A program made the position numbers and the translations under genes. From contig JBIKWQ010000004.1 in the NCBI GenBank assembly GCA_044356215.1, positions 3,748 through 67,747 of the forward strand: 64,000 bases of DNA. The letters are read 5' to 3'. The notes under the pieces are model-generated. The model was not told the DNA's origin, made no database searches, and worked only from the letters and a program-made list of their open reading frames with translations. The first letter of the stretch is position 1. Every line of letters begins with the position of its first letter. Source of the DNA: Bdellovibrionota bacterium (lineage in GTDB: Bacteria; Bdellovibrionota_C; UBA2361; OMII01). Below are positions 1,415-54,846 of this stretch, piece after piece.

Positions 1415-1430
1415 AGTCTAACGATTCTTA

Positions 1431-3134: not shown

Positions 3135-3140
3135 AGATCT

Positions 3141-4238: not shown

Positions 4239-4783
4239 GTTTTATCGGATTTGTAATCGGAGTAGTGGCGATCGTTTCAGGGGTCTGCGTAGTAGGGTTG
4301 AGAAATCCGCTCTACAGCGCGTTTGCCTTGGTGACTAATCTCCTGGCGATGGCGGGGCTCTACGCGGCACTTGACGCGCACTTTTTGGCGGTATCGCAGG
4401 TTGTGGTTTACGCCGGCGCGATCATGGTGTTGGTGCTATTTGTTTTGATGCTGCTCAATCTTAAGTCCGAGTCTGGGCGTAAGCTTGGATTTATCAGATC
4501 TGCGGTGGCGCTGGTGATCGGATGCGCGGTTCTACTATCAGCATTGCCTCCAGTGTTCGCCCGCTTCGCAGGAATGTCGGAGGTAACAGTTAGTGATAAC
4601 GCGCGTGACTCAGAGGGAACCGTCAAGGCGATCGGTCAGGAGCTATATACCAAGTATGTCCCCCAATTTGAGTTGTCTTCGTTAGTTTTATTGATCGGAG
4701 TGGTGGGGGCGGTGATGCTCTCTAAGCGCAGGAGCGTAACGTTACAGCCTAGAGCCGGTGGTCTAGTCGGGGGGAGTAAGTAA
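4235..4783 (+). CDS. nuoJ: NADH-quinone oxidoreductase subunit J (ND6)
   Basis: Small hydrophobic protein with NuoJ-like N-terminal helices; immediately follows nuoH with a 4-nt overlap; no nuoI in between. Confidence 0.75.
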
Positions 4784-4788
4784 TAAAG

Positions 4789-5091
4789 ATGAACTCTGTT
4801 CTTACATACGTAGCGCTTTCGATGGCGCTCTTTGTTATCGGCGCGATCGGGGTGTGTCTCCGTCGCAACGCGATAGTTGTTTTCATGTGTATCGAGATGA
4901 TGCTTAACGCGGTGAACCTAGCTTTTGTCGCTTTTAGCAAGCTTCACGGCAACCTCGACGGACAGATAGCCGTTTTCTTCGTAATGGTGATCGCGGCGGC
5001 TGAATCAGCGATCGGATTGGCTATTATCCTCTCGGTCTTTCGGAGTGTCGCTTCGGTTGAGACCACTGACGCGGGTGAACTGAAATGGTAG
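4789..5091 (+). CDS. nuoK: NADH-quinone oxidoreductase subunit K (ND4L)
   Basis: 100-aa three-helix membrane protein with a conserved acidic residue in the helix (ESAIGLAI). Confidence 0.85.
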
Positions 5092-6980: not shown

Positions 6981-6993
6981 GGTAGGGGACGTA

Positions 6994-8637: not shown

Positions 8638-8654
8638 AGAAGGGTAATAGTACT

Positions 8655-10111: not shown

Positions 10112-11122
10112 CTAATCGCGCGACTTATCTAAAAACTCTCTTATCTCGCGCGCCCTATTTTGCGCCGAGTGGTTCTTAAACAATCTCCACTTGCACTCAA
10201 ACATCTCCGCGATCGTCTCTAAGATCTCACAAACTTTCGCTGTCTCCTCTCCGGCTACTTCAGCCCCGTGACTCTCTTGTAAACGACTCTCCAGAAGCTT
10301 AAGGAGATTCCCTATATCTCTTGGTAATCCTAGCATCTCGAGCTGACAACAGGCCGCGCCAGTTCCCAGGCTGACCTGAGTTCCGTTGCCGAAGAAATCC
10401 CCGACAACAGAGTTAATCTTCGAAAGGTGTCCTAGGATCTCAAAAACAAATCGGCGTTCTTTGTTGTCGCGAGCTTTTATAATTTCGGTCACTGATTGTT
10501 CAGCCTGACCCACTAGGTGAGCTTCTGTGATACCAAAGACATCCACCAAGATATTATCGATCTTGCGCTTGCATTGCAGACGGTAACCTAGAGCTGTTTC
10601 CCTCTGTTTCTGGGGGAATTTCGCTAATCCGCCGATATGCTCAGGTTGAATCGTGTTAGCTACAACAGCAAAGCGTTCAAGCGCTCTCTGGTTTTGCGGG
10701 GTCAGCTCGAGGGCTCGATCGAAAATACGCGCCGTCCGGTCGATGTCGTACGGGCGCAATCCGAATTGATACCATCCAACGATCTCAAGAGAGAGCGAGA
10801 CTAACGAGTGTTGTTGAGGGTCTATTACAGAGGGCCACTCCTCGGTGCGAAGGTTTTTAATTTGGTCAAAATCTGTGAACCCGTGAAACGACAATATCTT
10901 CCAGGCTAGTCTAATAGCGTCGCCAGCGGCCTTTCTGTCGCGTGGGTTCCTCTCGACTAACTCGAAGAGCTCTCTAAGCTCGCGCATCGCCGCCTCAACC
11001 TGCTGTTCAGCTAACCTCGCGGATGCGTAACGGCCACGGTACCCATTCTCGGCAGGGGATATATGGTCCCTCTGGGGTCCTTTAGGTTCATGTTGTCGAA
11101 AATTGTAGGCATCAGATGACAT
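10112..11122 (-). CDS. hypothetical protein (alpha-helical, E/R-rich, no TM segment)
   Basis: 336-aa ORF convergent on nuoN with an 8-bp gap; no recognisable motifs. Confidence 0.5.
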   Translation of the reverse strand: MSSDAYNFRQHEPKGPQRDHISPAENGYRGRYASARLAEQQVEAAMRELRELFELVERNPRDRKAAGDAIRLAWKILSFHGFTDFDQIKNLRTEEWPSVIDPQQHSLVSLSLEIVGWYQFGLRPYDIDRTARIFDRALELTPQNQRALERFAVVANTIQPEHIGGLAKFPQKQRETALGYRLQCKRKIDNILVDVFGITEAHLVGQAEQSVTEIIKARDNKERRFVFEILGHLSKINSVVGDFFGNGTQVSLGTGAACCQLEMLGLPRDIGNLLKLLESRLQESHGAEVAGEETAKVCEILETIAEMFECKWRLFKNHSAQNRAREIREFLDKSRD

Positions 11123-12676: not shown

Positions 12677-14770
12677 GTGGCTAAGAAGGATTTAAGTAAG
12701 GTTCGTAACATCGGCATCATGGCCCACATTGATGCCGGTAAGACGACTACTACCGAGCGCGTGCTTTTTTACACCGGGATCAATTACAAGATCGGTGAGG
12801 TGCACGAGGGCGCGGCCACGATGGATTACATGGAGCTCGAGCAGGAGCGCGGTATTACTATTACTTCAGCCGCTACTACATGTAAGTGGAAGGGGTCCAA
12901 CAGCGAGTTTCCAGAGCATCAGATTAACGTAATCGATACACCAGGCCATGTAGACTTCACAATAGAAGTAGAGCGCAGCTTGCGCGTACTTGATGGCGCC
13001 GTTGCGGTATTCGATGCTGTAAGCGGTGTAGAGCCTCAGTCAGAGACCGTATGGCGACAGGCAAACAAGTTTAATGTTCCACGTTGCTGCTTCATTAATA
13101 AGATGGATCGCACCGGAGCTGACTTCCATGGAGGAGTTGCCTCTATTCGCGAGAAGCTCGGAGCTAAGGCGGTGCCCATTCAGCTTCCAATCGGAGCCGA
13201 GAGTGAGTTCGCTGGTGTTATCGATCTCGTTGAGATGCGCGCGATCATCTACAAGGATGAGACAAAGGGCGCTAAGTTCGAGGTAGCTGACGTTCCAGCT
13301 GAGATGCGCGCCGAGGCAGAGAAAGCCCGCGAATTCCTTTTAGAGTGTGTGGCTGAGGCTGACGATGCTCTTATGGAGAAGTATCTTCGTGGAGAAGCCC
13401 TCAGTGTAGCTGAGATTAAGTCTGGTCTTCGCAAGGGAACAATCGCGATGAACTTCTTCCCAGTACTCTGCGGAAGCGCGTTCAAGAACAAGGGCGTTCA
13501 GCCTTTGCTAGATGCGGTAGTTGAGTATTTACCGAGCCCATTAGACATTCCGGCCGTTAAGGGAACTGACCCAAACAGCAAAGGAGAGGTGGTCATCGAG
13601 CGTCAGGCAGATCCAGACGCTCCAGTAGCCGCGTTGGCTTTCAAGATCGTTACTGACCCATATGTTGGTATCCTTACGTTCTTCCGCGTGTATTCAGGTA
13701 CGGTAACAGCGGGAACTTCAATCCTTAACTCAACTCGCGGAAAGCGTGAGCGTGTCGGACGCGTAGTTCGCATGCATGCAGACAAGCGAGAGGAGGTAAA
13801 AGAGGTTGCAGCAGGTGATATCGGAGCAGCAGTGGGTCTTAAGGAGACGATCACGGGTGATACGCTCTGTTGTGAGAACAACCCGATCGTTTTAGAGAGT
13901 ATCCACGCGCCAGCCCCAGTTATCAGCGTAGCGATCGAGCCTAAGACTAAATCCGATGAGGAGAAGATGGGCTTATCGCTAATGAAGTTAGCGAAAGAGG
14001 ATCCATCTCTTAAATTGAGTGTTGATAAAGAGTCCGGACAGACGATCATCTCAGGAATGGGAGAGCTGCACCTTGATATCATCAAGCAGCGCCTCTTCCG
14101 CGAGTTCGGAGTCGATTCTACTGTAGGTAAGCCGCAGGTGGCTTACCGCGAGACTATTCTTAATAAGGCTGAGGCCGAGTGCAAGTACGCTAAGCAGACC
14201 GGTGGTCGCGGACAGTACGGTCACGTACTTCTACGTGTAGAGCCGCTTGAGGCTGGCAAAGGATTTGAGTTTGTTGATGAGATTAAGGGAGGCGTCATCC
14301 CGAAGGAGTACATACCAGCTGTCGAAGACGGAGTAGTCGAGGCCCTCGAAGGGGGTATCTTGGCTGGATTCCCAGTTATCGATATGCGTGTGACACTTTA
14401 CTTCGGAAGCTTCCATGAAGTTGACTCGAGTGAGATCGCCTTCAAGATCGCTGGCTCCATGTGTGTTAAGGATGCTTGCAAGAAGGCGAAGTTACAACTA
14501 CTTGAGCCGATCATGTCGGTTGAGGTGGTGTGTCCCGATGATTTTATCAGCAACATCGTGGGTGACCTGAACCGACGACGCGCAAGAATTCTTGGCATGG
14601 AGCCGAGAGCTGGCGCGCAGACGGTGAAGTGTGAGGTTCCTCTGGCCGAGATGTTCGGCTACTCGACGGATCTCCGCTCAAACTCACAGGGGCGAGCCAC
14701 CTTTACTATGGAGTATCACCACTACGCTGCCGTGCCGACACACGTCATGGAGAGTATGGTGAATAAGTGA
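12677..14770 (+). CDS. fusA: elongation factor G
   Basis: GTPase motifs [21 protein letters not shown]; 697 aa; GTG start. Confidence 0.96.
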
Positions 14771-14806
14771 TGTTTTTAATGGTGTCCTAATTAACCGGAG
14801 AGAATA

Positions 14807-16003
14807 ATGTCTAACAAGAAATTTGATAGAACCAAACCACACGTTAACGTTGGTACTATCGGTCACGTTGACCATGGTAAGACCACGACTACAGCCGCGC
14901 TCGTTGCCGTTCAAGCGGCTAAGGGCCTAGCGACTGTAAAGTCGTACAAGGATATCGCTAAGGGTGGAACCGTCCGTGACGATTCCAAGACCGTAACGAT
15001 CGCCAGCGCCCACGTTGAGTACGAGACAGCTAACCGCCACTACGCTCACGTAGATTGCCCGGGCCACGCTGACTACGTAAAGAACATGATTACTGGAGCC
15101 GCTCAGATGGACGGCGCTATTCTAGTAGTAAGTGCCTCTGATGGTCCTATGCCTCAGACTCGTGAGCACATCCTCTTGGCTCGCCAGGTAGGAGTTCCGA
15201 AGATCGTTGTGTTCCTAAATAAGGTTGACACAGTAGATGATCCTGAGTTGCTTGATCTCGTAGAGATGGAGGTTCGTGACCTTCTCTCTGAGTATGACTT
15301 CCCAGGTGCTGATACCCCAGTTATCCGCGGTAGCGCGCTCAAGGCGCTTCAGGGTGAGCAGAGCGATATCGGCGTAGGAGCTTTCGACAAGCTTCTCGCT
15401 ACTATCGACGAGTACATCCCTGTACCACAGCGTGATATCGATAAGCCGTTCCTAATGCCAGTTGAGGATGTATTCTCAATCGCTGGTCGTGGAACAGTAG
15501 CTACAGGACGTATTGAGCGTGGTCGTATCAAGGTTGGTGAGGAAGTTGAGATCGTTGGTCTCCGCGACACAACCAAGACTATTGTTACGGGCGTTGAGAT
15601 GTTCAAGAAGCTTCTCGATGAGGGACATGCTGGCGACAACGTTGGTTGTCTCCTCCGTGGTCTTAAGCGTGATGATGTTGAGCGTGGTCAGGTCCTTTGC
15701 GTGCCTGGCAGCGTAAAGCCGCACAAGAAGTTCAAGGCTGAGGCTTACATCCTTAAGAAGGAAGAGGGTGGACGTCATAAGCCATTCTTCTCCGGATACC
15801 GTCCACAGTTCTTCTTCAGAACAACAGACGTAACCGGTTCCATCAAGCTCCCAGACGGAGTTGAGATGGCGATGCCAGGCGATCATATCAACTTAGATGT
15901 TGAGCTGTATCAGCCAATCGGTATCGAGAAGACTCTCCGTTTCGCTATCCGTGAGGGTGGTAGGACGGTAGGTTCAGGTGTAGTTACCGACATCATCGAG
16001 TAG
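14807..16003 (+). CDS. tuf: elongation factor Tu
   Basis: [21 protein letters not shown] motifs; 398 aa. Confidence 0.97.
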
Positions 16004-30779: not shown

Positions 30780-31877
30780 ATGGCTAGTTTTGGTGGACCT
30801 AGGAGACCAGACGGTGGCTTAGCGCCAAAGGGGGATCAACCTGGGCAACATTCCACTGGCGCATCCCGGCAATCCCAGATCAATAGTACAGGTACTGGTA
30901 AGAAATCAGATCGTCCTGACGTCGATAGTAGCACTGATACCAATCCACCACCTCGTTCAGAAGTATCGATAGTTCGGGCGTTATTCGGCCCAGCGTTTGC
31001 GATAGGGGCAGGAAATACACTCTACATCGCGCAATTCGGTAATCATGTCCTAACTTTGGTTTATGCGTGACTTGCTGCTTTGTCATTCCTTAACTCGGCA
31101 AAGCCGGGATTCGTTAGTGGCATTTTGAGTGGAGGAATTAATAATGATCCACTAGAGGCCGAAAAAAAGCTGAGTGGTTTTAGTGGATTCATCAAGGAGA
31201 AGGTCTCGCGACCAGGAGTATGCTTAGCCGCTAACGGTGTAGCTTATGCGGTGACAGCTTTAGGTTATTTAGGATGGTTAGCGGCAGGTGGGCGGGATTT
31301 TGGTTTCACGGCGAATGATGTGGTTCAGATATTAGTCTGCGGCTTTTCGGCGGTTGGAGAGTTCGCTGGAGCAGCTCTTTGCAACAAAAACGCTTTGCAG
31401 CTAAACCGAGAGCCGTGGGGTCTTGAGAAAATCGCCACAACGATCTGGTCGAAGATACCGACTGGCGTGCGCGCGTTTTTAAGTGATCCGGGGGCTATAT
31501 TCTCTAACGTTAATGCGGTGCTCTACGGATGGACTTTCTACAAAGCCGGAGCTCTTTCAAGTGCCGTCTCGGGCTCTCAGTTGGCCTTAACCGCGGCGGG
31601 CAGTAGCTTTACGTTATTGGGAGCGTTCTTCGGAATATGTTCTGTCTTTTATGGTGCTGGCAAATGGGGCAAACCGTTACCAGTAACATTTAATAGCATC
31701 GGTAACTTCTTCAGTGGAGCGGCGATGATCTCGTTGGGGGTAGCGAGCGCTTCGCTAGTCCCAACGTTAATCGGCGCCGCGTCATTACTCTGGGCCTGGG
31801 GAAACGGATGTTATTCGGTAAATTCGATTCGTGAGACTTTTTTTACTAGTAAGCAAAACTCGCCTACACCTCAATAA
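30780..31877 (+). pseudogene. Gly/Ala-rich membrane protein gene interrupted by an in-frame TGA at 31068-31070 (ORFs 30780-31070 and 31080-31877 share one frame)
   Basis: Both ORFs are in the same frame and separated only by TGA plus 9 nt; hydrophobic segment continues across the stop; the second ORF has only a TTG start with no RBS; strong RBS GGAGAGG before 30780. Confidence 0.5.
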
Positions 31878-33282: not shown

Positions 33283-35922
33283 CTACAGAAGCTCAGATTT
33301 TAAAGTCTGATAATCAGTTTTTCCACTACCCAAAACAGGCAAGCTCTTTATCTGGCGCGCTTCGCTGATATGCACAATAGGCGGGAACCCTGCGTTCTTT
33401 AGCGCCGCGTTAGCTCCCTCTACAGAGAGGCTACCGGCGATAAACGCCACAAGCTTAGGCCTTCCATCACCCTCGCTTCCTTGTGTTAAGACCGCCACAG
33501 AAGGTGCGCCATCTGGTGAGGGAACGAGCTTTTGCAGCGCCTCCTCTACGGCGCCAAGGCTAATCATCTCGCCAGCAATCTTTATAAAGCGCTTTAGTCG
33601 ACCGGTAATTACAAGTGAGCCATCCTTTATCAATCCAAGATCTCCAGAGTTGTACCAACGCTCATTTCGATGCTCAACGAATGGATCAATGGCGGGATCA
33701 AGATATCCGTGAAAGACATTTGGGCCTTTGATCAGAATCAGCCCCTGCTCGCCCGTCGCGACAGGCTCTCTGGTCTCAGGATGAACGATAGCTAGCTCTA
33801 CACCGCTTATAGGTCGACCGACCCCTATGCGTGGCTGACTTGGTCTGCCAACGCTCACAACTGGGCTGCACTCGGTTATGCCGTATCCCTCAAGAACCTG
33901 AGCATTAGGATTAATAGCCGCGACCTGCTCAAACAATTCAGTTGGGGCGCGTTCGGCTCCCGACACTAAGGCTCTTAAGGTTTGAAATTGCGTAGCCTCG
34001 CCTGAGCTTAAGATCGATCTCAGAAACGTTGGAGTTCCAGCGGCTATCGTAGCGCTCCAAGCGGAGATAGCTTTGGCTATCTTGCGGCTCTCGTTTGGAT
34101 TCGGATGATAAGCGACCTTGAGCCCTGTCATTAACGGTAAAAGGGTGCAGATCGTTAATCCAAAAGAGTGAAAGGGTGGGAGGAACCCCAGAAGCACATC
34201 GTCTTTTGAGATGCTGAAAGCTTCTAGCACTCCACTTACGTTAGACATGATATTACGGTGGGTCAGCGGCACACCCTTAGGCAGTGCCTCTGATCCGCTT
34301 GTGAATAGAACTACAGCAGGTGAGTCAGGGTCTAACTCTCGTAGCCCGAAAGCTTCTAGGATCTGCTCAGTTGATTCTCTGGCTAGACGCTTGCCAGATA
34401 TCTTGTCGCGCAAGCTTAAGTCTCGGGCGATATCCTCTAAGAGCACGAATCTATTGTCGAGAAAGTCTAGATCGGTAGGGATGAGATCTAGAAATGCTTC
34501 AGATGTGATGATCGCTGATAGTTCAGTGGCCTCGCAGGCGTGCAGGAGCGATCTCTTTCCAGCGGTCCAATTTAGGAATACCGGCGTTTTCCCTGCGAGG
34601 ATCGTAGCCATCGTCACAAGCGACCCGGCCGCTGATGCGGGAAGTAGCACTCCTATATGTGAGCCAGATAGTTGGCTGATGTAGCGAGCAAGGATGACGA
34701 CCTTAAGCTTTACTTCGTTCCAACGAACTACCCCGGCGCGTGGATCGGCGAGAGCCGGCTGCTTACCGAAGCGGCTGCATGCGATTAGAAATGCTTGAGC
34801 GATAGTTGAAGCCGATCTTAGCTCCGGTTCAGGGCGTGTCGCGCTCGCTTCGCTCCAGAACTGAGGGGCAATAATTTCAGATCTGGTGGTAGTTTGATTA
34901 AGCTCACCAGCGGCTGCGCGCATCAGGGAGCCAACAGTGAGCAATTCCGAGAGCTCTACATCGTGAACCTCAAACTCGCGATCTAACCAGATGAGTAACT
35001 CCGCGATTGAGAGTGAGTCGATCCCAAGGTCGTCTCCGAGGCGAGTATCCGGGCTAATGCTAGCAACAGGAACCTGCGCTACGTGAGCCACCCGCGCGAT
35101 AACCTTTTCGCGAATCTCATCGGGAACAGAATCAAGGGAGTGATTAGTGATAGCTCTTTCAGGTAGCTCTGGAACGCTACGATAGAGAAAGCTGTGTGAT
35201 ACAAGCACGGGAGCTTCGGGTTCTGGCGAGTTGTAGTGGGTCTCCAGGTATCTGTTGATCGCCAGAGGCTCCCCATCTTTAGGAAGATCTGTAGGATTAA
35301 AAGTTATCTCGATAGAGACCTGACGGCGGGGTGTAAACAGGAAGAGGTTCTGCAAGAGGATCCTAATTCCTCGCAAGCATGTTTTTCCGACATCAGGCGT
35401 AACGCCGCCGGTAGTCGCCTTAGAGAAGATACTTCCACAGAGGCCACGGATTTTTACCACAGCGACCTGCGCGTTCGGATAGCCTTTTAAGATCGTGTGC
35501 ACCCCTGATGTTCCACCTATCCGTTCTGGGCCACTGACTGATAAGCGACCAGATGGATAAACAAGTATGTTGTCACCGTACTCAAGTGATTGAACGATCT
35601 GGCCTAAAGCCCGCTCGATACGACGGCGTTTGTAGGGGCCAGAATCAAACTCCATATCCGCCATAGGGATAGCTCTGATACGCTTGAGCACCGGATTAAG
35701 AAAACGCAAACGATACATGCTTTCAAGCACAACCGGGCGAGGGCGGAGGGTCTCCCAAAGAAGGGTAGTGACGATAACTGGATCAATCTCGGCTGGGTGA
35801 TTAGGCAGGATTAATACGCCACGGGTCTTGGATACCTCTTCCAGCCCGGTAACGGTGATTTTGTAGCGGAGACTCAGTAAAAGCTTAAGTATTCGTGCTA
35901 ACATACTTCTGCTAGCTTTCAC
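33283..35922 (-). CDS. tri-domain Aas-like protein: lysophospholipid acyltransferase (PlsC-like) - acyl carrier protein domain - acyl-ACP/acyl-CoA synthetase (AMP-binding)
   Basis: HX4D motif NHPAEID plus YPSGRLS block; phosphopantetheine-site DLGIDSLS; AMP-binding motifs LFTSGSEALPKGV and GYGITE. Confidence 0.75.
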   Translation of the reverse strand: MKASRSMLARILKLLLSLRYKITVTGLEEVSKTRGVLILPNHPAEIDPVIVTTLLWETLRPRPVVLESMYRLRFLNPVLKRIRAIPMADMEFDSGPYKRRRIERALGQIVQSLEYGDNILVYPSGRLSVSGPERIGGTSGVHTILKGYPNAQVAVVKIRGLCGSIFSKATTGGVTPDVGKTCLRGIRILLQNLFLFTPRRQVSIEITFNPTDLPKDGEPLAINRYLETHYNSPEPEAPVLVSHSFLYRSVPELPERAITNHSLDSVPDEIREKVIARVAHVAQVPVASISPDTRLGDDLGIDSLSIAELLIWLDREFEVHDVELSELLTVGSLMRAAAGELNQTTTRSEIIAPQFWSEASATRPEPELRSASTIAQAFLIACSRFGKQPALADPRAGVVRWNEVKLKVVILARYISQLSGSHIGVLLPASAAGSLVTMATILAGKTPVFLNWTAGKRSLLHACEATELSAIITSEAFLDLIPTDLDFLDNRFVLLEDIARDLSLRDKISGKRLARESTEQILEAFGLRELDPDSPAVVLFTSGSEALPKGVPLTHRNIMSNVSGVLEAFSISKDDVLLGFLPPFHSFGLTICTLLPLMTGLKVAYHPNPNESRKIAKAISAWSATIAAGTPTFLRSILSSGEATQFQTLRALVSGAERAPTELFEQVAAINPNAQVLEGYGITECSPVVSVGRPSQPRIGVGRPISGVELAIVHPETREPVATGEQGLILIKGPNVFHGYLDPAIDPFVEHRNERWYNSGDLGLIKDGSLVITGRLKRFIKIAGEMISLGAVEEALQKLVPSPDGAPSVAVLTQGSEGDGRPKLVAFIAGSLSVEGANAALKNAGFPPIVHISEARQIKSLPVLGSGKTDYQTLKSELL

Positions 35923-36153: not shown

Positions 36154-37080
36154 ATGGCAAAGATCGTCGTCACCGGAGGTGCTGGTTTTATCGGCTCACA
36201 CATCGTTGACCGTCTTAAAACCGGGAATGAGGTACATGTTATCGACGACCTCTCAAGTGGATTGAAGCAGAACCTCTCCCCTGATGTTAAATTGCATGAG
36301 CTTGATATCCGATCAGAACAAGCTGCTGACCTGATCGCTAAGCTTGAGCCTGATTTCTTAGTACACGCTGCAGCGCAGATCTCGGTTCGTATAAGCATGG
36401 ATAAGCCAGCCGTTGATACAGACATCAACGTGACCGGACTCATAAATCTCCTTACTCCGCTGTGTCATACTAAAAATAAGGCGCATGTTGTGTTCCTCTC
36501 ATCAGGAGGAGCTTGTTATGGAGAGCAGGAAGTATTCCCAGCCCCTGAGGGTCATCCGATTAGACCGGAGAGTGTCTACGGATTATCTAAGAGAGTTGGC
36601 GAGATGTATCTTGAATTCTGGTCGCGCGTTTGGGGAATTAGCAGTACATCGCTGCGACTATCAAATGTCTATGGCCCACGTCAAAACCCTCATGGAGAAG
36701 CCGGTGTAGTGGCGATCTTCTGTGAGCGATTGTTGGCTGGCAAGGATATCGTAGTCAACGGCAGCGGTGAGCAGACTAGAGATTTTGTTTTTGTTGGCGA
36801 TGTCGCGGACGCTGTTTTTAAAGCTGTGGAGAAGCGCCCGGTTGGCGAGTTCAATATCGGAACAGGCCGAGAGACTTCAGTCATCTCTTTGGCGACAGAG
36901 CTTAGAGATCGCGCGTGCCCTACGGCCAAGATTGACTTCGCGCCGGCCAAAGCGGGTGAGCAGATGCGCAGCGTTATCGATAACACCCTTGCAGGAAAGT
37001 TCCTCTCATGGAGCCCTAAGGTGGATATGGCCGATGGATTGGCTCGCACCCTCGAATGGTACCGCGAAGGTAAGAGATAG
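36154..37080 (+). CDS. NAD-dependent epimerase/dehydratase (UDP-glucose 4-epimerase family)
   Basis: GGAGFIGSH Rossmann motif, YxxxK catalytic motif; 308 aa. Confidence 0.8.
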   Translation: MAKIVVTGGAGFIGSHIVDRLKTGNEVHVIDDLSSGLKQNLSPDVKLHELDIRSEQAADLIAKLEPDFLVHAAAQISVRISMDKPAVDTDINVTGLINLLTPLCHTKNKAHVVFLSSGGACYGEQEVFPAPEGHPIRPESVYGLSKRVGEMYLEFWSRVWGISSTSLRLSNVYGPRQNPHGEAGVVAIFCERLLAGKDIVVNGSGEQTRDFVFVGDVADAVFKAVEKRPVGEFNIGTGRETSVISLATELRDRACPTAKIDFAPAKAGEQMRSVIDNTLAGKFLSWSPKVDMADGLARTLEWYREGKR

Positions 37081-38200
37081 TCGTAGCCCGGATAATTTAA
37101 TAACTATATTCATCCCGAGTGTTCACGGAGGTGGAGCCGAGCGCGCCATGCTTGTGTTCGCCTCCGAATTACTTAATTTAGGTTTTAATGTAGATCTGGT
37201 TTTAGTTAGGTTAGAGGGACAGAACGTCAGTCGGATCCCCGGTGGAGCGCGCGTTGTTGATCTAGATTGTCGGCGGATGTTGACCGCGATCCCTAAATTA
37301 ATCAGATATCTTAAAAACCACCAACCGCGCGCTGTTTACTCTACCATCACTCACGCGAACATCGCGCTCGCTTTCGCTTCTAGATTCGCTCGAGTCTCAT
37401 ATCCGGTGGTTGTCAGACAAGCAAATGCGCCGATCTCGGAGACCAAAGATAGTATCGGACGGAAGATTGCCAGCCGAATGATTCCGCTGGCCTATGGTTA
37501 TGCATCAAGGATTATAGCGGTGTCTGATGGGGTGCGTGGGGAGCTAATAAAGCTATCAAGCGGCCTGGAAACGTTGATATCGGTTATTCCTACACCTGTG
37601 ATAAGCGAGCAGCTACTTGACGATGGTACTCGTACCCCAGAACATCCGTGGCTCATACAGCCGCAGCATGATCGAGATGTGCCAGTAATATTAAGCGCAG
37701 GGAGGCTTGAGCCACACAAGGGGATGCTCGACCTAATTCGCGCATTTAAGTCGGTTAGAGATAAAAGAGCGGCGAAGTTAATTATCCTTGGAGAGGGATC
37801 GCAACGGGGAGAGCTTATACGAGCGGCTGAGTCTTTAGGAGTAGGAGATGATGTTGACCTGGTGGGGTTTAAGAGTAATCCCTATGGTTACATGAATCAC
37901 GCTAACGTATTCGCGCTAGCTTCATGGTACGAGGGGCTACCGAATGTATTGATTCAAGCCTTAGCGTTTGGCACCCCAGTAGTAGCGACAGATTGTCCAA
38001 GTGGCCCGCGGGAGATCTTGGAGGATGGCAGATTAGGGAGATTAGTCAGAGTAGGGGATCTTACAGGTTTATCGGATGCTTTAAGTGACTCGTTAGTTTT
38101 ATCTAAGAGTAGTGAAGCAAGAGAGTCAATGCTAAAGCGATTTGGGGCTCGTGAGGCTACGCTTAGGTATTTGGGGGTGGGGTGTGAGACGGGAATTTAG
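37034..38200 (+). CDS. GT4-family glycosyltransferase
   Basis: N-terminal GGGAER motif and C-terminal EX7E-type motif (SWYEGLPNVLIQALAFGTPVVATD); start uncertain, ATG 37034 overlaps the epimerase 3' end. Confidence 0.7.
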   Translation: MDWLAPSNGTAKVRDSRSPDNLITIFIPSVHGGGAERAMLVFASELLNLGFNVDLVLVRLEGQNVSRIPGGARVVDLDCRRMLTAIPKLIRYLKNHQPRAVYSTITHANIALAFASRFARVSYPVVVRQANAPISETKDSIGRKIASRMIPLAYGYASRIIAVSDGVRGELIKLSSGLETLISVIPTPVISEQLLDDGTRTPEHPWLIQPQHDRDVPVILSAGRLEPHKGMLDLIRAFKSVRDKRAAKLIILGEGSQRGELIRAAESLGVGDDVDLVGFKSNPYGYMNHANVFALASWYEGLPNVLIQALAFGTPVVATDCPSGPREILEDGRLGRLVRVGDLTGLSDALSDSLVLSKSSEARESMLKRFGAREATLRYLGVGCETGI

Positions 38201-38205
38201 GACGG

Positions 38206-39282
38206 CTACGGGGGGGTGGGAGATGCGCCTCCTCCTGGTGCTTGTTGTCGCCGCGAATAGCGCTCTATTTCATGAAGGCGCGTGCTGGTCATAGGATGTG
38301 ATGAGAGATAGCTACTGAGACCACTTTCTTCACGTCCCTCCGAGATCTTCCTTAACGCCTTGTGAAGAGCCATCGGGTCACTCCCTTTCTTCGCCAGACT
38401 ATCAAGCGCAAAGCGATCAGCCTCTCGCTCATGATCTCGAGAGTTCTTCGAGTCGATTAAGTTGATAGCCAGAGCCTGGAATACACCCGGATCTCCCCCG
38501 AACAACAGGAGCGTAGCTATCGAAATCGCCGAGCCTCGTACCAGACTCTGAGTGCCGTGATCATAAAAAAGATGCCCCATCTCATGGGCCAAAACGGCTT
38601 CTAATTCCGAATCGTCGAGTGCCTTGACTAATTTATCGGTGGCGATGATGGTATTGGGAAGGAGTGCCAGCGCGTTCGTTACCTCTTTATCTCCGCGACC
38701 CATAAGACGGGTCATCACATTCGGCTCAAGTGGAAGCGCTATGGCGGTCTGGAGCCCTTGCACTAGCTTCTTCGGGCGCGCCTGTTGCTCATCGCTTAGG
38801 CTAGTTGGCATAAACAAAATTTTATCGAGAAGCCCTAGACCCTGGGAGCCTATTTCTCGTTTCATCGCGATCGGAATATGCGGTGCCATTTTTTTCGCGA
38901 TCAGCGGTAGTCCGTAGGTATACAAGGAGAACGACACACCAATGGCGAGCAGAACCACGCAGAGAGCCGAAAGAGGACGAGTCTCGATCGTCTCTATTAG
39001 TTGGGTTAGTCTTGAAACGCCAAAACCAAATGCTTTTTTTGAGCGCGAGTCGGTGGCTACATGGATCTCGGCGCCATTCTCGAAACGTAATACGATTGGC
39101 GAGTCGCCCACTGGTCGAATAGTCTTGTACTCTAGCGGCGAAATCCTGCTAGCTCCTTCGGAATTTGGATCCAGAATAAGATCGCCATTGTCCTCTCGGA
39201 ATAAAGTTCTCCGAATGGCTTTTGACGACACGCCATCAAAGAATAGTCCTTCGAACTTCTCAATGCCACCAGTCGTTTTCAC
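38206..39282 (-). CDS. M48-family zinc metallopeptidase with N-terminal soluble domain and one TM segment
   Basis: HEMGH zinc-binding motif, downstream glutamate (HEREAD), TM helix LSALCVVLLAIGVSFSLYTYGL. Confidence 0.75.
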   Translation of the reverse strand: MKTTGGIEKFEGLFFDGVSSKAIRRTLFREDNGDLILDPNSEGASRISPLEYKTIRPVGDSPIVLRFENGAEIHVATDSRSKKAFGFGVSRLTQLIETIETRPLSALCVVLLAIGVSFSLYTYGLPLIAKKMAPHIPIAMKREIGSQGLGLLDKILFMPTSLSDEQQARPKKLVQGLQTAIALPLEPNVMTRLMGRGDKEVTNALALLPNTIIATDKLVKALDDSELEAVLAHEMGHLFYDHGTQSLVRGSAISIATLLLFGGDPGVFQALAINLIDSKNSRDHEREADRFALDSLAKKGSDPMALHKALRKISEGREESGLSSYLSSHPMTSTRLHEIERYSRRQQAPGGGASPTPP

Positions 39283-39293
39283 AGGGCCTACCT

Positions 39294-40394
39294 TTAAAAG
39301 CCAAAATCTACATCAAGGTCGTACACATCCGCGGCCTGCTCGCCGACCGAACGGATCTCCGTGCGGGCTTGCCCTGCGAAATCATCGAGGTTCTTAGGGC
39401 CGACAACGGCAAGGTTATCAAGAATAAATCGCCTAACCCTAATAACACACCACGGGCGCGCAAAACCGAGTGTCGCCAAGAGTAGGAGGGTGTTTGTTAG
39501 CGATATAAAAAAGTAGCGCTTCATAGCGGGCAGACAGCTAATAACGCAGCTTCCAATTGTGGCGTTATCCCAGACACGACGGGCCACCCCGAGCCTCATA
39601 TAGCCCGGCACCCACGCTATGACAACTAAGCCAAATAAGCTAACTGAACTGGCGATTGCCATTCGAGGTAATTGAGCAAGCGAGATATGTCCAGACTTTA
39701 TCATCGCTGAGGAGATTCCGCTGGTAGCTATTCCGCATATTACGATTAACGCTCCCACTACGAATAGTAATGTGGCAACCGCGTATACTCGGTACATCTG
39801 TCCAAGCGTTATCGGCGTCTTGAAAGAAGTGACCCCGTATTTAAGATTATTAACAGCGTATCGCTTTGAAGACAGCCGCGCCCACGGGGCGAGTAGCCAT
39901 AAAGTCATAATAGCGACAACTTTTGGCAATACACATCTCGTGAACGCCTCTCCAGCGGTCCCAGCAAAGTGAAACGAAAGATTTCTATAGCTCGTGTAAC
40001 GAGCCCGGAATCGAAGCGCCGCGGAGATTACCCAAGGCCAGCCAAGCGCAAAAAGCGGAACAGCAATGAGGATCCAGAGCCAAGAGATAGCACGCGCCTT
40101 AGTTATCACAATTAGAGCGGCGAAGAGAATCAGGCGACCTTTAAATATCTTCCATGGGTCCGCCGTGTATTCAAATTGCACACCGGCCAGCTCGGTATGG
40201 CTCATTAGGTACCGCTCGCGTCGCACTTTCGCCCACGGGGAATAAAATCCTAGAGTAATAATCGTAAGAGCTACATTCACTATCCAGATGCTGAAATACT
40301 CGCGGGCCGAACCCGTGAATAAAAAAGAATGCTCAACTGACTCATCTGGAGCTGCACGAGAGGAAGGTGGCGGAGGTGATTGCGTGACTGTCAT
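39294..40394 (-). CDS. DUF898/YjgN-family polytopic membrane protein
   Basis: Multiple TM helices with YjgN-like repeated W/R-rich loops; immediately upstream of, and presumably co-transcribed with, the M48 peptidase gene. Confidence 0.55.
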   Translation of the reverse strand: MTVTQSPPPPSSRAAPDESVEHSFLFTGSAREYFSIWIVNVALTIITLGFYSPWAKVRRERYLMSHTELAGVQFEYTADPWKIFKGRLILFAALIVITKARAISWLWILIAVPLFALGWPWVISAALRFRARYTSYRNLSFHFAGTAGEAFTRCVLPKVVAIMTLWLLAPWARLSSKRYAVNNLKYGVTSFKTPITLGQMYRVYAVATLLFVVGALIVICGIATSGISSAMIKSGHISLAQLPRMAIASSVSLFGLVVIAWVPGYMRLGVARRVWDNATIGSCVISCLPAMKRYFFISLTNTLLLLATLGFARPWCVIRVRRFILDNLAVVGPKNLDDFAGQARTEIRSVGEQAADVYDLDVDFGF

Positions 40395-40479: not shown

Positions 40480-40884
40480 TCACAATAAATCAACCGCGCC
40501 AGTTTTTCTTAGTGTCTCGTCAGCGGTAGCGAATACAAGTTTGTTCTCAAGAGCAGTAGCCACTAAGAAGCGATCGGCTGGATCGCCGTGATCAAAGTTA
40601 AGTCTTCGCGATCTGAGCGCGATTGGAAAGGTCAGCGGGGCCTCCTTAAGCGAAAATTCGGAGAGCGCTGATTTAATCCAAGAGGCGGGCGTTCCCTTTA
40701 CCGCTAATCTGCCTCTCTCTATCAGTAAGTGAGCCTCCCAGATTGAAACCGGACTAAGGAATAGCTCGTTGTCTGGATTGTCTAGCCCGACTTTTTGCTT
40801 CTTGTTTAATCGCTTGTCACCAAGCAGGTACCAGAGCCAAATGTGGGTATCGAGCAGGATCCTCACTTTATGAGCGCCTCCCAA
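40480..40884 (-). CDS. vapC: PIN-domain ribonuclease toxin (VapC-like)
   Basis: N-terminal LLDTHIWLW PIN signature with conserved acidic residues; overlaps the upstream antitoxin by 22 nt. Confidence 0.75.
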   Translation of the reverse strand: MGGAHKVRILLDTHIWLWYLLGDKRLNKKQKVGLDNPDNELFLSPVSIWEAHLLIERGRLAVKGTPASWIKSALSEFSLKEAPLTFPIALRSRRLNFDHGDPADRFLVATALENKLVFATADETLRKTGAVDLL

Positions 40885-41102
40885 TCGTTATCGGCAAGAG
40901 GGGAGACGAGGTCCCCGACTTTCCCGGATAGGGTGTCTTTTAAAGCGCCATATGAACTCTTCGAACGCTTGGAATCTGCTGGATAAACAACCGCCAATGG
41001 CTTTCCGTTCTTTAGGATCTCGATCGGCTCGCCAGTGGTCTTTACTCGCTCAAGAAGACGCAAACAGATAGCTTTGAACTCAGAGACGTTAATTTTTTCC
41101 AT
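40863..41102 (-). CDS. Phd/YefM-type antitoxin
   Basis: 79-aa protein with Phd/YefM-like N-terminus (INVSEFKA...LLERV...GEPIEI..NGKP.AVV). Confidence 0.65.
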   Translation of the reverse strand: MEKINVSEFKAICLRLLERVKTTGEPIEILKNGKPLAVVYPADSKRSKSSYGALKDTLSGKVGDLVSPLADNDWEALIK

Positions 41103-51405: not shown

Positions 51406-52602
51406 ATGAGTACTAGAGCCCTTTCCTCGCATATTCTCGCCGATTTAAAGGGTAAAAAGATGGTAATGCTTTCCGGCCCTCGCCAATGTGGAAAAACGAC
51501 ATTGGCGAAAGCGCTTCCTGAACTATCTTCTGATATGGCGTACTACAATTGGGATGTTGCGCCGCACAGAGAAAAACTTAAAAATTACAAACTTGATGAA
51601 TCAAAGCACTATTGGGTTTTCGATGAACTTCATAAATATCGAGCCTGGAGAAATTGGCTCAAGGGGGTTTACGATTTACACCATACACATCATGAAATTT
51701 TAATAACTGGCAGCGCACGACTTGACCAGTACGCACGAGGGGGAGATTCACTCCAGGGCCGCTATTTTCACTACCGTTTACACCCCTTTACCTTAGGGGA
51801 GGTTCTTAACCTACCAGAACAAAATTATCGCAAATCCTTAGAACGAGCCGCTAAGGTTAGTTGGTCTGCTCACGCTCAAAATACACTGCTAGAACTATTG
51901 AAATTCGGTGGCTTTCCGGAGCCTTTTTTAAGTAAGTCGACAAGCTTTGCAGGTAGATGGCGCTTGGCGTACAGCCAGCGTTTGGTGAACGAGGATGTTA
52001 GAACACTTGAACAAACGCAAGAATTAGATCAGATGAGTTTATTGTACGACCGCTTACCAGACTTAGTTTCGAATAATCTATCGATCAATAACCTAGCAAA
52101 AGATCTGGAGATCTCCCACCAAACCGTCGCTAAGTGGATCGGAATTTTTGAGAAATTATATGCTAACTTCTACGTCTTGCCTTATGGTGAGCCTGCAATT
52201 AAGGCCATAAAAAAAGAAAAGAAACTGTATCTCTGGGATTGGGCGCGCCTATCAGATCCAGGGGCGAGGCTAGAAAATCTCGTAGCGCTGCATTTACTAA
52301 GGTTAGTGCATTGGTTTGAGGATATCTACGGAGAGATACTTGAGCTCAGATATATAAAAGATATAGATGGGCACGAAATTGATTTTTTACTCCTACGTAA
52401 TAAGCTTCCTTGGATTGCAATAGAAGTCAAAAACTCTGAGCAAGGCATCAGTACAGGTTTTAAATATTTGTTGAATAAAATTAGAATTCCATATGCCTAC
52501 CAGATCCATTTAAAAAGTGAACTAGTTTATAAACTCGCTAACATAAATCAGAGCACTGTTTATGCTTTGCCAGTGAGCAATTTTCTTTGTGGATTACCGT
52601 GA
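51406..52602 (+). CDS. AAA-family ATPase of the DUF4143/AAA_14 type
   Basis: Walker A GPRQCGKTT; typical ATPase plus DUF4143 C-terminal architecture; markedly AT-rich relative to its flanks. Confidence 0.75.
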   Translation: MSTRALSSHILADLKGKKMVMLSGPRQCGKTTLAKALPELSSDMAYYNWDVAPHREKLKNYKLDESKHYWVFDELHKYRAWRNWLKGVYDLHHTHHEILITGSARLDQYARGGDSLQGRYFHYRLHPFTLGEVLNLPEQNYRKSLERAAKVSWSAHAQNTLLELLKFGGFPEPFLSKSTSFAGRWRLAYSQRLVNEDVRTLEQTQELDQMSLLYDRLPDLVSNNLSINNLAKDLEISHQTVAKWIGIFEKLYANFYVLPYGEPAIKAIKKEKKLYLWDWARLSDPGARLENLVALHLLRLVHWFEDIYGEILELRYIKDIDGHEIDFLLLRNKLPWIAIEVKNSEQGISTGFKYLLNKIRIPYAYQIHLKSELVYKLANINQSTVYALPVSNFLCGLP

Positions 52603-54107
52603 GAAGTTCTCTGGCGCAGGGTCGAACGGGTCGTAGGAGGGTAGTTCATCGAGAGCCTCTGACGCATCGATGAACTTCGGGATGGGGGGGAGGTGCTCGA
52701 ATGGTACAAAGAGAACCGGCTAGGGCGGTAAGCTAACCGGTGTAACCAGTTTTCTAGGTCTGTATATCCATCGTGATTTCGGTCTGACATAGGGCTCCGC
52801 GGTAGCCTTAATCTTCTTGTTCGATTCGGAGATGAACGTGAGGTCCCGCCAGCCCTCAGACACCCAGATACACAGTCTTTGAGGCTCCCGGAACGGTTGG
52901 TAACATCGGATATGATCCGCTGATCGATAGGGGAGCGATTGCGCGGTCGGCTACCTACATCCGAGATAAGTTTTGAATACGCGGCTTCGCTCGGAAGATT
53001 GTTGAAGGCACCGGAGGTAATTGGTGGATATCCGGCACGAAAGGTTTCTTCATCAAGCTTGGTTAACGACCAGGACCTGTTGCTATTTAAGTCGCCTTTT
53101 AGCTCGCTATCCTCGATATAGATCCGGCTGGAGATCGCTAGTGCGCTAGCATATATCGGAGGTGCGACAAAGCTCCATGGACCTGGAATGTAGGAGTTGC
53201 CTATGAAAGTAAGAGAAACGGGATCGGCGGTGCCGTCATTATTTGATATGTTACAGAGAGACCAAGGGCCGCGGCCCCCCCAGCCGTAAACGGTATTGTT
53301 GATCATCTCTACTGAGGCCCCCGGTTTGATATAGGGATTGCGCTCCTCGTTTGATGCAATCAGATTGTTGCGCAGCGTAATTCTCTTCGAAAGGTCGCCA
53401 ATCATGACTCCTTTGCTGTGAGGTCCTTTTGGATGGATGGAGTTGTACAGCCCTTCGGCGATAAGGCAATTAGAGATAGTAACATCGTGAGTGTTAGGGT
53501 AGGCAGTTGAGATATTCTCATCAACTGCCCACGTCAATGAGAGGTGATCGACAACTACGTTGTAGGCTGATCTCGGAGGTGCGGCGCCTATGGACACCGC
53601 GTCTCTAAACCTGGGTTCAACGCCGGTATGATTGTCTCCTGGACGGACCGCAAGATGCTGCATCAGAACGTCGTGAGTTTCGACGCTAAATCCGCCCTGA
53701 GTAATTGTAATACCGGGATTGGGGGCGGTTTGTCCTGCGATAGTTATGTACGGATGTTTAATTTTTAGGATCGACTTAAGCCTAATCTCACCCGAGATCT
53801 CAAAGACGCATGTGCGGGGTTCCTTGGCGTTGATGCATTCCCTGAGCGAGCCAGGACCAGAGTCAGACAGACTTCGAATTCGAAAGATCCTAGTACGCGG
53901 TTTTTTTAGGTGGCGACCGCTTCCGGCCTGTGTCTCGACTCCGAATCCAGATAGCCCGGGTATTATAGGTAAATCGCGGCGTGTGTTGATGTCGGCTGCC
54001 GTTGCAGAGAGAACTTTACCCGATGCAATTGGTTCGGCTATCGAATTGAATAGTGTCGCGGCAAAAATTGCGACAGCAACAGGGGAGAGATCTTTAAGTA
54101 GGTCCAT
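52560..54107 (-). CDS. secreted right-handed beta-helix polysaccharide lyase (pectate-lyase family)
   Basis: Signal peptide MDLLKDLSPVAVAIFAATLF, pectate-lyase-like motifs (HPYITIAGQTAPNPG, DHLSLTW, DGYTDLENWLH); the C-terminal ~60 aa after ENWLHRL is low-complexity and is encoded antisense to repeat copy 2 and the insertion's right edge. Confidence 0.65.
   Translation of the reverse strand: MDLLKDLSPVAVAIFAATLFNSIAEPIASGKVLSATAADINTRRDLPIIPGLSGFGVETQAGSGRHLKKPRTRIFRIRSLSDSGPGSLRECINAKEPRTCVFEISGEIRLKSILKIKHPYITIAGQTAPNPGITITQGGFSVETHDVLMQHLAVRPGDNHTGVEPRFRDAVSIGAAPPRSAYNVVVDHLSLTWAVDENISTAYPNTHDVTISNCLIAEGLYNSIHPKGPHSKGVMIGDLSKRITLRNNLIASNEERNPYIKPGASVEMINNTVYGWGGRGPWSLCNISNNDGTADPVSLTFIGNSYIPGPWSFVAPPIYASALAISSRIYIEDSELKGDLNSNRSWSLTKLDEETFRAGYPPITSGAFNNLPSEAAYSKLISDVGSRPRNRSPIDQRIISDVTNRSGSLKDCVSGCLRAGGTSRSSPNRTRRLRLPRSPMSDRNHDGYTDLENWLHRLAYRPSRFSLYHSSTSPPSRSSSMRQRLSMNYPPTTRSTLRQRTSHGNPQRKLLTGKA
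52700..52771. repeat. 72-bp direct repeat, copy 2 (encodes the conserved C-terminus of the pectate-lyase-fold gene on the - strand)
   Basis: Identical to 51164-51235; its reverse complement encodes HDGYTDLENWLHRLAYRPSRFSLYH; a degenerate ~35-bp extension upstream resembles the epimerase 3' end with a G7 homopolymer. Confidence 0.9.
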
Positions 54108-54207
54108 CCGGAGAGAGATATCAGTCTCCGAAGTTATCAAGGATGATCCATGTTACTTGACGCGCAGATGATGCGATGTAACACATCTCTGGCGTGAGTT
54201 TCGGCGC

Positions 54208-54846
54208 TTAAGCGGATCTCTTTATGCCGCCGCTTCTTGATCTTTTTGATACGCCTGTGCCAGTTTGGCCATAGTTGAGTGCCGCAACTTTCGTGCGTGA
54301 GCTAGCTGTCACAGGGGCATTTCCTGATGCCTCTAGGCGTCCCTGAATGAGCCTCTCTCCGGCTCTGAATGAAGTCGTCGCTTTCGTATCTCCTAGCGAA
54401 TCCCACGCGGCGTCTATGTTATCGTCTAGCTGCGCCGAGGCAAAAGCCAGATCTCTGATCTGACTGGCCTCCTCTTGTGTCATTAGGGTGGAATCTACGA
54501 AGAACTTTAGTGACTCTTTAGTCGCTCGCTCAGCAGAGGCAAATCTCTCCGTTGGTGGCTTGTCTGCCATGTTAAGTTTAAAGGCTGACCGAAAATCCCT
54601 GGCTATTGAGTCCCCGAATCGATTTTTGATTAGCTGGTGAGCCGTAGCGGCAAAAAGTTCCTCTTCGTTTACCTCTCCTGGCTTAAACGTGTTGCCGAGA
54701 AGATTCCGCAAAGTGCGCCCAAACTCAGTGGTCGGGGTTGAGCTTCGAGACGGTTTTCTTCTCTGATTCCGAACGCTTAGAGCCTCTTGTGTTGGCTCTT
54801 TGCGGGCAGCTACCTTAAATTTGGGGCTAATCTTCATAGCGGTCAT
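54208..54846 (-). CDS. hypothetical protein (basic termini, no TM segment)
   Basis: 212-aa ORF divergent from glmS; no recognisable motifs. Confidence 0.4.
   Translation of the reverse strand: MTAMKISPKFKVAARKEPTQEALSVRNQRRKPSRSSTPTTEFGRTLRNLLGNTFKPGEVNEEELFAATAHQLIKNRFGDSIARDFRSAFKLNMADKPPTERFASAERATKESLKFFVDSTLMTQEEASQIRDLAFASAQLDDNIDAAWDSLGDTKATTSFRAGERLIQGRLEASGNAPVTASSRTKVAALNYGQTGTGVSKRSRSGGIKRSA

Follow-up and report, generated by a model that had tools for sequence, protein, structure and literature searches.

Two adjacent genes in a 64,000-nucleotide stretch of a Bdellovibrionota genome (contig JBIKWQ010000004.1, positions 3,748 to 67,747; hereafter the window) raise the question of why a DUF898 (YjgN-like) membrane protein and an M48 zinc metallopeptidase should be encoded side by side within a polysaccharide locus. 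The open reading frame (ORF) list places both genes on the minus strand, to which all coordinates for the pair and its parts refer, and in the same direction, as an initial annotation had stated. A polytopic inner-membrane protein of the DUF898/YjgN family (366 amino acids; 39294-40394, stop codon 39294-39296), whose start matches that of its closest relatives (P0002 and P0003, 366 amino acids each), is followed by a bitopic M48 zinc metallopeptidase of 358 amino acids with a GTG start (38206-39282). The gap between them, first given as 12 bp, is 11 nucleotides (39283-39293, TAA-AGGTAGGCCCT-GTG), with a Shine-Dalgarno-like AGGTAGG before the peptidase GTG. The strict pairing of such genes across genomes, their tight spacing, a domain exclusive to this protease type and a tail found only on paired DUF898 proteins lead us to propose, with a probability of about 40%, that the two products are the obligate subunits of one inner-membrane metalloprotease complex, in which the tail of the DUF898 protein is docked on a PH-like domain of the peptidase.

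The DUF898 protein matches Pfam PF05987 from profile position 2 to 336 of 336 (E = 3.2e-90; 303 bits, against a cut-off of 28), and its content of Trp (3.3%) and Arg (7.1%) agrees with the W/R-rich multi-transmembrane protein described at the outset. The profile match for 39294-40394, on which the initial annotation had staked its assignment beforehand, is thus present over the full length of the family. A scan of GTDB, one genome per species, with a DUF898 alignment as query yielded at least 589 confirmed loci; the best 80, with 29-38% identity to the window DUF898 protein and biased as a sample toward relatives of the query, were used for a survey of gene order. Searches with the window peptidase (tblastn) placed an M48 homolog immediately downstream and on the same strand in 77 of the 80 loci. 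Two of the other three end at a contig edge, and the last (L079) has an M48 partner at a 4-nucleotide overlap, overlooked by tblastn and recovered from the ORF listing and Pfam, in which both DUF7092, the N-terminal domain of this peptidase type, and M48 are clearly matched. The pair is therefore conserved in 78 of 78 evaluable loci, as had been expected of its relatives. In the reverse direction, both distant DUF7092-M48 genes that were checked, one from Methylomarinum and one from a Rokubacteria metagenome-assembled genome, have a DUF898 gene directly upstream.

Spacing is tight. Measured to the start codon nearest the DUF898 stop, the intergenic gap lies within ±20 nucleotides in 73 of the 78 loci, and the genes overlap by 4 nucleotides or 1 nucleotide in 23. 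The 11-nucleotide gap of the window recurs unchanged in the relatives L001 and L002 and on the P0014 contig; it is retained in relatives at 76% and 58% identity though the flanks differ. Those of L001 (76% identity) are partly similar, with glycosyltransferase and epimerase genes downstream, while those of the P0014 relative are wholly different and consist of rhodopsin/carotenoid genes and a Mg-chelatase-like gene. When all flanking ORFs were clustered, no further gene proved to be conserved: no other family reaches more than 15 loci, and those that come next in frequency reflect the synteny of Rhizobiaceae, in which the surroundings are stable and chromosomal, and elsewhere the neighbors are housekeeping genes. 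We read DUF898 and M48 as a self-contained operon that is probably translationally coupled. The sampled hosts are all diderm and include Alpha-, Beta- and Gammaproteobacteria, Nitrospirota, Verrucomicrobiota, Deinococcota, Spirochaetota, Desulfobacterota and Methylomirabilota.

The AlphaFold model of the window DUF898 protein (pLDDT 90, pTM 0.82) contains three repeats, at residues 20-76 (40167-40337), 134-192 (39819-39995) and 278-332 (39399-39563). In each, a β-strand or β-hairpin leads into a hydrophobic helix of 17 residues, a tip of 5, a Lys/Arg-rich helix of 14 and a final β-hairpin. The triplication is also visible in the sequence, all three repeats aligning to the first repeat of Escherichia coli YjgN. 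Repeat 1, with a β-strand, hydrophobic helix a, the uncharged tip TLGFYSPW, the Lys/Arg-rich helix b (AKVRRERY) and a β-hairpin, shows the strongest conservation in the protein (invariant F26, Y33, N40, L43, G49, Y51, W54, A55, V57 and F74); repeat 3 carries the invariant residues N301, P314 and R319. Two long transmembrane hairpins are modeled between the repeats (residues 80-132 and 197-275), and repeat 3 is followed by a C-terminal helix (336-358) and a low-confidence tail. Neither structure comparison (best E = 0.8) nor sequence profiles gave a significant match of the DUF898 fold to the PDB. Single-repeat relatives exist as small proteins, for example a DUF898/DUF4234 protein of Enterococcus faecalis. 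A common origin of the DUF898 β-elements and the PH-like domain of the peptidase, considered because of similar F.F.G.S strands, was rejected (hhalign probability 0.2).

Among 60 homologs, about 25 Lys and Arg residues lie on the side of the β-elements as against about 0.5 at the tips of the transmembrane hairpins, which are 1-7 residues long; the tips of the repeats are hydrophobic and carry no charged residue at all. In some lineages the DUF898 protein is extended at its N-terminus by domains of cytoplasmic type, most frequently DnaJ, but also Zn_ribbon_4, GYF_2, an XRE-type helix-turn-helix (HTH) or HEAT (extended genes or proteins: L091, 4001-6246; L092, 949-3260; L093, 4001-6333; P0278; P0315). 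The J-domain (two cases, P0277 and P0270), zinc-ribbon and GYF variants that were checked all keep DUF7092-M48 directly downstream, and the HTH fusion is rare (1 of 67 in a fusion search). The charge distribution and these fusions together place both termini, the β-platform and the basic face of the DUF898 protein in the cytoplasm. In the topology that we infer, four true transmembrane helices form two hairpins, both ends are cytoplasmic and the cytoplasmic face is strongly basic; the three short hairpins would dip in from the cytoplasmic side as re-entrant or interfacial segments.

Both J-domain loci also have a DsbA-family gene divergently upstream. A further J-domain-DUF898 gene (P0088) occurs on five independent contigs (L084-L088), all of which stop 76-86 nucleotides past its stop codon, where the peptidase gene would be expected; a PEP-CTERM-like gene lies upstream.

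The window DUF898 protein ends in an acidic tail (residues 351-366, 39297-39344, GEQAADVYDLDVDFGF-COOH) whose last residues, DLDVDFGF, fit the pattern [DE]-Φ-[GSA]-Φ-COOH (Φ, hydrophobic) preceded by an acidic helix. An alignment of 81 paired DUF898 proteins from their carboxyl ends gives the consensus A-[VT]-G-[EA]-E-x-x-[DE]-Φ-[FE]-[DG]-Φ-D-Φ-[GS]-[LF]-COOH, with Asp at position -4 in 70 proteins and Glu in 8, and Leu or Phe at position -1 in 73. The exact [DE]-Φ-[GSA]-Φ terminus is present in 171 of 186 database homologs, N-terminally extended proteins included, and lies within two residues of the end in 8 more. Together with a DUF7092-M48 gene directly downstream, this terminus defines what we call the M48-paired DUF898 subfamily, to which the window protein belongs. 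The motif is absent from E. coli YjgN, which is unpaired. Since it is fixed relative to the free carboxylate, the motif suggests recognition by a binding domain. The low confidence of the tail in the AlphaFold monomer (pLDDT < 50 at residues 360-366) fits a predicted binding to another chain.

A candidate for that binding domain is found at the N-terminus of the peptidase. Hydropathy, AlphaFold (pLDDT 88.8) and Pfam agree on the architecture described in the initial annotation, namely a soluble N-terminus, one transmembrane helix and an M48 domain with the HEMGH...E signature (Peptidase_M48, E = 5.7e-23; 82.2 bits, cut-off 20.3). The N-terminal domain (residues 1-90, 39013-39282; Pfam DUF7092) is modeled as a seven-stranded β-sandwich with a C-terminal helix (residues 8-85, pLDDT 87-96), and Foldseek relates it to PH domains and to the PTB-like talin F3 domain, including complexes with peptides. 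The DUF7092 profile (PF23368) scores 19.8 bits in the window peptidase, below its cut-off of 24.5; it is exceeded by homologs at 31-78% identity and by the L079 partner. A profile of the PH-like domain matched 2168 representative clusters (50% identity), 803 of them at E ≤ 1e-10. Among the best 150 of the 2168, all with one exception are N-termini of proteins of about 330-470 amino acids with the M48 architecture, or fragments; in this set, the DUF7092-like domain is exclusive to this type of M48 protease. The exception, the 4255-residue top match P0366, is a LapA/RTX adhesin whose score was summed over repeats, and was set aside as an artifact.

The catalytic domain (residues 136-347, 38242-38877) contains HEMGH at residues 233-237 (38572-38586), the third zinc ligand Glu285 within SRDHEREAD (38428-38430), the NAxA substrate-edge strand (residues 203-206), on which N203 and A204 lie, and SSHP (residues 327-330). 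N203, A204, H233, E234, H237, E285, A288, D289, H329, P330 and R335 are invariant in 60 homologs. The conservation of HEMGH, Glu285, N203/A204 and H329/P330 indicates that the active site is intact. Foldseek matches the domain to 3C37, BepA, ZMPSTE24 and BlaR1. Its family profile aligns over the whole catalytic domain of PDB 3C37 (E = 9e-48) and BepA (E = 3e-26), and only around the HExxH helix of Ste24 and HtpX. Thus, the peptidase belongs with the soluble, extracytoplasmic M48 type.

The only transmembrane helix of the peptidase (about residues 103-128, 38899-38976; hydropathy 98-129, model helix 103-135) is preceded by a folded domain of 97 residues and no signal peptide. This arrangement most probably leaves the N-terminus in the cytoplasm and quite likely puts the catalytic domain in the periplasm. 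Charges flanking the helix agree weakly across the family, favoring an N-terminus-in orientation in 36 sequences against 18.

From these elements a two-subunit complex can be sketched. The C-terminal peptide of the DUF898 protein would dock as an added β-strand on the cytoplasmic PH/PTB-like domain, and the single helix of the peptidase would pack against the DUF898 helices, so that the DUF898 protein, embedded in the membrane, would anchor the protease, regulate it or serve as its adaptor. The substrates, if those of BepA, LoiP, YcaL and HtpX are a guide, might be mis-assembled or stalled envelope and membrane proteins, which the protease would cut on the periplasmic face of the inner membrane for quality control or processing. 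The variable cytoplasmic additions (J-domain, zinc ribbon, GYF, HTH) could act as input or adaptor modules, and the J-domain fusions, which keep the partner gene, hint at a link to DnaK-dependent cytoplasmic proteostasis. A bolder version of the proposal, unlikely in our estimate, is a kind of transmembrane protease complex not described before, with control running from inside to outside: the DUF898 protein, its three re-entrant hairpins set on a β-platform, would hold a periplasm-facing M48 domain and control it by inserting its Φ-D-Φ-G-Φ peptide into the PH/PTB-like domain, so that the state of the cytoplasm, sensed in some lineages through J-domain and DnaK, would set proteolysis in the envelope.

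Several observations weigh against such a complex. The PH-like domain is itself slightly acidic (average net charge -1.9) and thus offers the acidic tail no obvious electrostatic partner; the tail could instead fold back on the basic face of the DUF898 protein itself, or act as a degron. The clade of the window peptidase has reversed flank charges, with two Lys/Arg on the N-terminal side of the transmembrane helix and four on the C-terminal side, and the periplasmic placement of the catalytic domain is accordingly not secure. A cytoplasmic J-domain on the DUF898 protein is not easily reconciled with an active site in the periplasm. A concatenated DUF898+M48 query retrieved only N-terminally extended DUF898 proteins and no fusion of the two partners; P0395, with DUF7092 at residues 125-202, was considered as one and rejected, since it looks like a frameshifted or mis-called ORF. 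The searched literature contains no phenotype or expression data on the pair. Regular expressions for sigma-E, sigma-32, alphaproteobacterial RpoH, EcfG, sigma-54 and sigma-70 promoters, applied upstream of 79 DUF898 genes, gave 0-1 matches each, which is the background level, and no obvious element is common to the upstream regions of the window and L001. No stress-sigma consensus (sigma-E, sigma-32, EcfG) was thus seen in the 79 loci. The envelope-related role suggested at first is still plausible on other grounds, because the catalytic domain is BepA-like and probably periplasmic and the sampled distribution of the pair is confined to diderms.

The same features can be read in other ways. 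The DUF898 protein might be the dedicated substrate of the protease, as a pseudo-substrate, inhibitor or tethered factor, rather than its scaffold. Regulated cleavage would then inactivate or activate it or free its cytoplasmic N-terminal module, the tail serving as the recognition or cleavage site by analogy with the C-terminal processing carried out by Ste24. One-to-one pairing is typical of dedicated protease-substrate pairs, the tail, fixed to a free C-terminus, has a β-strand-like alternation of hydrophobic and acidic residues and could lie on the NAxA edge strand, and the rare XRE-type HTH or J-domain N-termini resemble membrane-tethered factors that are freed by proteolysis. Nevertheless, we judge this unlikely: the most probable topologies put the tail in the cytoplasm and the active site in the periplasm, to which the DUF898 protein shows almost nothing beyond its short hairpin tips; HTH fusions are very few, and the neighborhood has no conserved transcription factor or other output gene. 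A channel or transporter for small molecules or peptides is a more improbable alternative. Here the three re-entrant hairpins, parallel and with invariant Asn residues, would together make up a pore of pseudo-threefold symmetry, and the M48 domain would process a peptide once it has reached the other side of the membrane. Channels and transporters typically contain such re-entrant loops, and the parallel repeats with uncharged hydrophobic tips, the invariant polar residues in membrane helices (N40 and N301), the small single-repeat relatives and a fold without solved relative are all consistent with a pore. However, the survey found no conserved neighbor encoding a precursor peptide, an ABC ATPase or a binding protein, and the PH-like domain and the C-terminal tail are given no role.

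Two further readings rest on the surroundings of the pair in the window, which lies between glycosyltransferase blocks and beside a toxin-antitoxin (TA) pair, as the initial annotation had described. Pfam identifies GT4 and epimerase genes on one flank and, on the other, PIN/Phd, Wzy_C, a Wzx-like flippase, Bac_transf, GT4, a Wzc-like protein, Wza and a second epimerase. Within this Wzx/Wzy-type locus the pair might be an accessory of the polysaccharide pathway, for instance processing a component of the export machinery or controlling its quality, and the glycosyltransferase and epimerase downstream of L001 are in line with such a role. Yet, of the 80 GTDB loci, no more than 2 have homologs of the polysaccharide genes of the window inside 6 kb, all of them epimerases; the P0014 relative sits between carotenoid/rhodopsin genes and the Mg-chelatase-like gene, and other loci have unrelated housekeeping neighbors. 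The adjacent PIN/Phd pair, a type II TA system, prompted the idea of an anti-phage defense or TA-like abortive module, to which a weak PADLOC match of the peptidase to CapP (E = 0.003) might be added. That match is not significant and covers only the zinc motif in the HExxH region; PADLOC-DB 2.0 gave no match for DUF898 and nothing significant for the peptidase. Moreover, the TA pair accompanies DUF898-M48 in none of the 80 loci, the synteny in Rhizobiaceae is stable and chromosomal, and the flanks of the window pair show no mobile-element hallmarks. With so little recurrence, the local context is incidental, and the polysaccharide locus and the PIN/Phd pair are unrelated neighbors of DUF898-M48. 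The survey largely excludes both readings, each of which we hold to be very improbable, and the function first proposed from local context, including a role in defense, finds no support in it.

The TA genes lie directly upstream of the DUF898 gene (40480-41102, minus strand) and encode a PIN-domain toxin (40480-40884) and a Phd/YefM antitoxin (40863-41102) in ORFs that overlap by 22 nucleotides. A sigma-70-like promoter at 41141-41112, upstream of the Phd gene, is the nearest such site to the window pair. The TA pair and the DUF898 gene are separated by 85 nucleotides without a predicted terminator, so read-through from the TA pair into DUF898-M48 is possible. Given its absence from all GTDB loci surveyed, the TA pair is probably a lineage-specific insertion. 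On the opposite flank, the mechanically called GT4 ORF (36767-38200, plus strand) overlaps the preceding epimerase gene (36154-37080) by 314 nucleotides. Because its glycosyltransferase domain begins only at ORF residue 122, translation of GT4 probably begins around 37.08-37.13 kb.

Pfam already lists both families and the N-terminal domain, and the window copy is an ordinary member whose 76%-identity relatives share its arrangement. The searched literature holds no functional treatment of DUF898, YjgN, DUF7092, COG4269 or DUF4234; the adjacency of DUF898 and M48 is thus, as had been claimed, recurrent yet functionally unexplained. Nor did we find there the completeness of the pairing, the C-terminal motif, the PH-like assignment or the re-entrant-repeat architecture. 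One publication (PMC4562309) calls the membrane domain of the urate oxidase PuuD 'DUF898' (E = 6e-135). This is probably a slip for another DUF number and was not used as evidence; taken literally, the label would wrongly tie DUF898 to urate oxidation. DUF898/YjgN is a widespread bacterial membrane family, carried at loci in at least 589 GTDB species, and a large subfamily of it is strictly coupled to one dedicated type of M48 peptidase. The docking-type motif at the C-terminus, the protease-exclusive PH/PTB-like domain, the predicted topology and the J-domain fusion variants provide testable handles. Should the pair prove to be a protease for envelope quality control together with its membrane adaptor, it would join the small set formed by BepA, LoiP, YcaL and HtpX and give DUF898 its first functional foothold. 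For annotation, the window pair should not be treated as polysaccharide-pathway or defense genes.

The window as a whole is core chromosome, with nuo genes, ribosomal operons, secY, adk, glmS and mraZ-rsmH-ftsI. The nuo row (16-10103, plus strand) encodes NuoD, NuoE, a 567-amino acid NuoG-like protein, NuoH, NuoJ, (K), L, M and N. It has no nuoF between E and G and no nuoI between H (3141-4238) and J (4235-4783), which overlap. EF-G and EF-Tu (12677-16003, plus strand) are each the sole member of a 90%-identity cluster in a collection of 15 billion proteins, which therefore contains no close sequenced relative of the source lineage. An Aas-like fusion protein of 879 amino acids (33283-35922, minus strand) is encoded just outside the polysaccharide locus; it combines PlsC-type acyltransferase and AMP-binding (acyl-activating) domains and, unlike Aas, contains a phosphopantetheine carrier domain of its own, located internally. 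Four ORFs have no Pfam match at E ≤ 1e-5: 10112-11122 (minus strand), 31080-31877 (plus), 52560-54140 (minus) and 54208-54846 (minus), of 336, 265, 526 and 212 amino acids, respectively. The ORFs of 526 and 212 amino acids are flanked by glmS and an AAA_14/DUF4143 ATPase gene (51406-52602).

Compared with known systems, the window peptidase shares its type of M48 catalytic domain with BepA (YfgC), LoiP (YggG), YcaL and the Geobacter M48 peptidase of PDB 3C37; 3C37 and BepA are among its best Foldseek matches. The targets of BepA, LoiP and YcaL are envelope proteins that have stalled or misassembled, and all three work outside the cytoplasm. Unlike the window peptidase, these and 3C37 are soluble periplasmic proteins or lipoproteins without a PH-like domain, a transmembrane anchor or a DUF898 partner gene, and BepA has a TPR domain of which Pfam finds none here. 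The corresponding NCBIfam models score far below their cut-offs: 34.6 bits for the BepA equivalog NF052400 (cut-off 570) and 52.5 bits for LoiP NF052399 (cut-off 365), the latter being the best NCBIfam match of the window peptidase, whose N-terminus is not a signal peptide. HtpX (M48B) and Ste24/ZMPSTE24 (M48A) are also membrane-bound M48 zinc proteases with an HExxH...E site, the former acting in membrane-protein quality control and the latter on C-terminal tails. However, HtpX has four transmembrane helices, with HExxH between the second and the third, and a cytoplasmic active site, and Ste24 forms a seven-helix chamber, whereas in the window peptidase one helix is combined with a globular domain like that of BepA (HtpX equivalogs, 29 bits or less; cut-offs 245-422).

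On the DUF898 side, the founding protein E. coli YjgN belongs to the same Pfam family (E = 1.5e-45) and carries the first-repeat motif TIITLG.Y.PWA..K.KRYL, but only its first repeat aligns well. It has no adjacent M48 gene, valS lying convergently downstream, and no Φ-D-Φ-[GS]-[LF]-COOH tail.

BlaR1 and MecR1 likewise couple a zinc protease across the membrane to a domain on the other side and give weak Foldseek matches (E about 4e-3). They belong to a different family (M56) and have the reverse orientation, with a cytoplasmic protease and an extracellular sensor, and the repressor partner gene of BlaR1 is absent here. The putative docking of the tail has parallels in the DegS PDZ domain, which binds the YxF-COOH terminus of outer membrane proteins, and in peptide binding by PTB and talin F3 domains; the elements in common are a short motif at a free C-terminus, with an aromatic or aliphatic last residue, and a small β-sandwich domain on a protease. 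In contrast to DegS, the domain here is PH/PTB-like rather than PDZ, and the motif is acidic and located on the partner subunit rather than on the substrate. Finally, although FtsH-HflK/C and stomatin-NfeD have no sequence or fold relation to DUF898-M48, and DUF898 lacks an SPFH domain, they follow the same logic: a conserved operon encodes a membrane protease together with a non-catalytic membrane partner that scaffolds or gates it.

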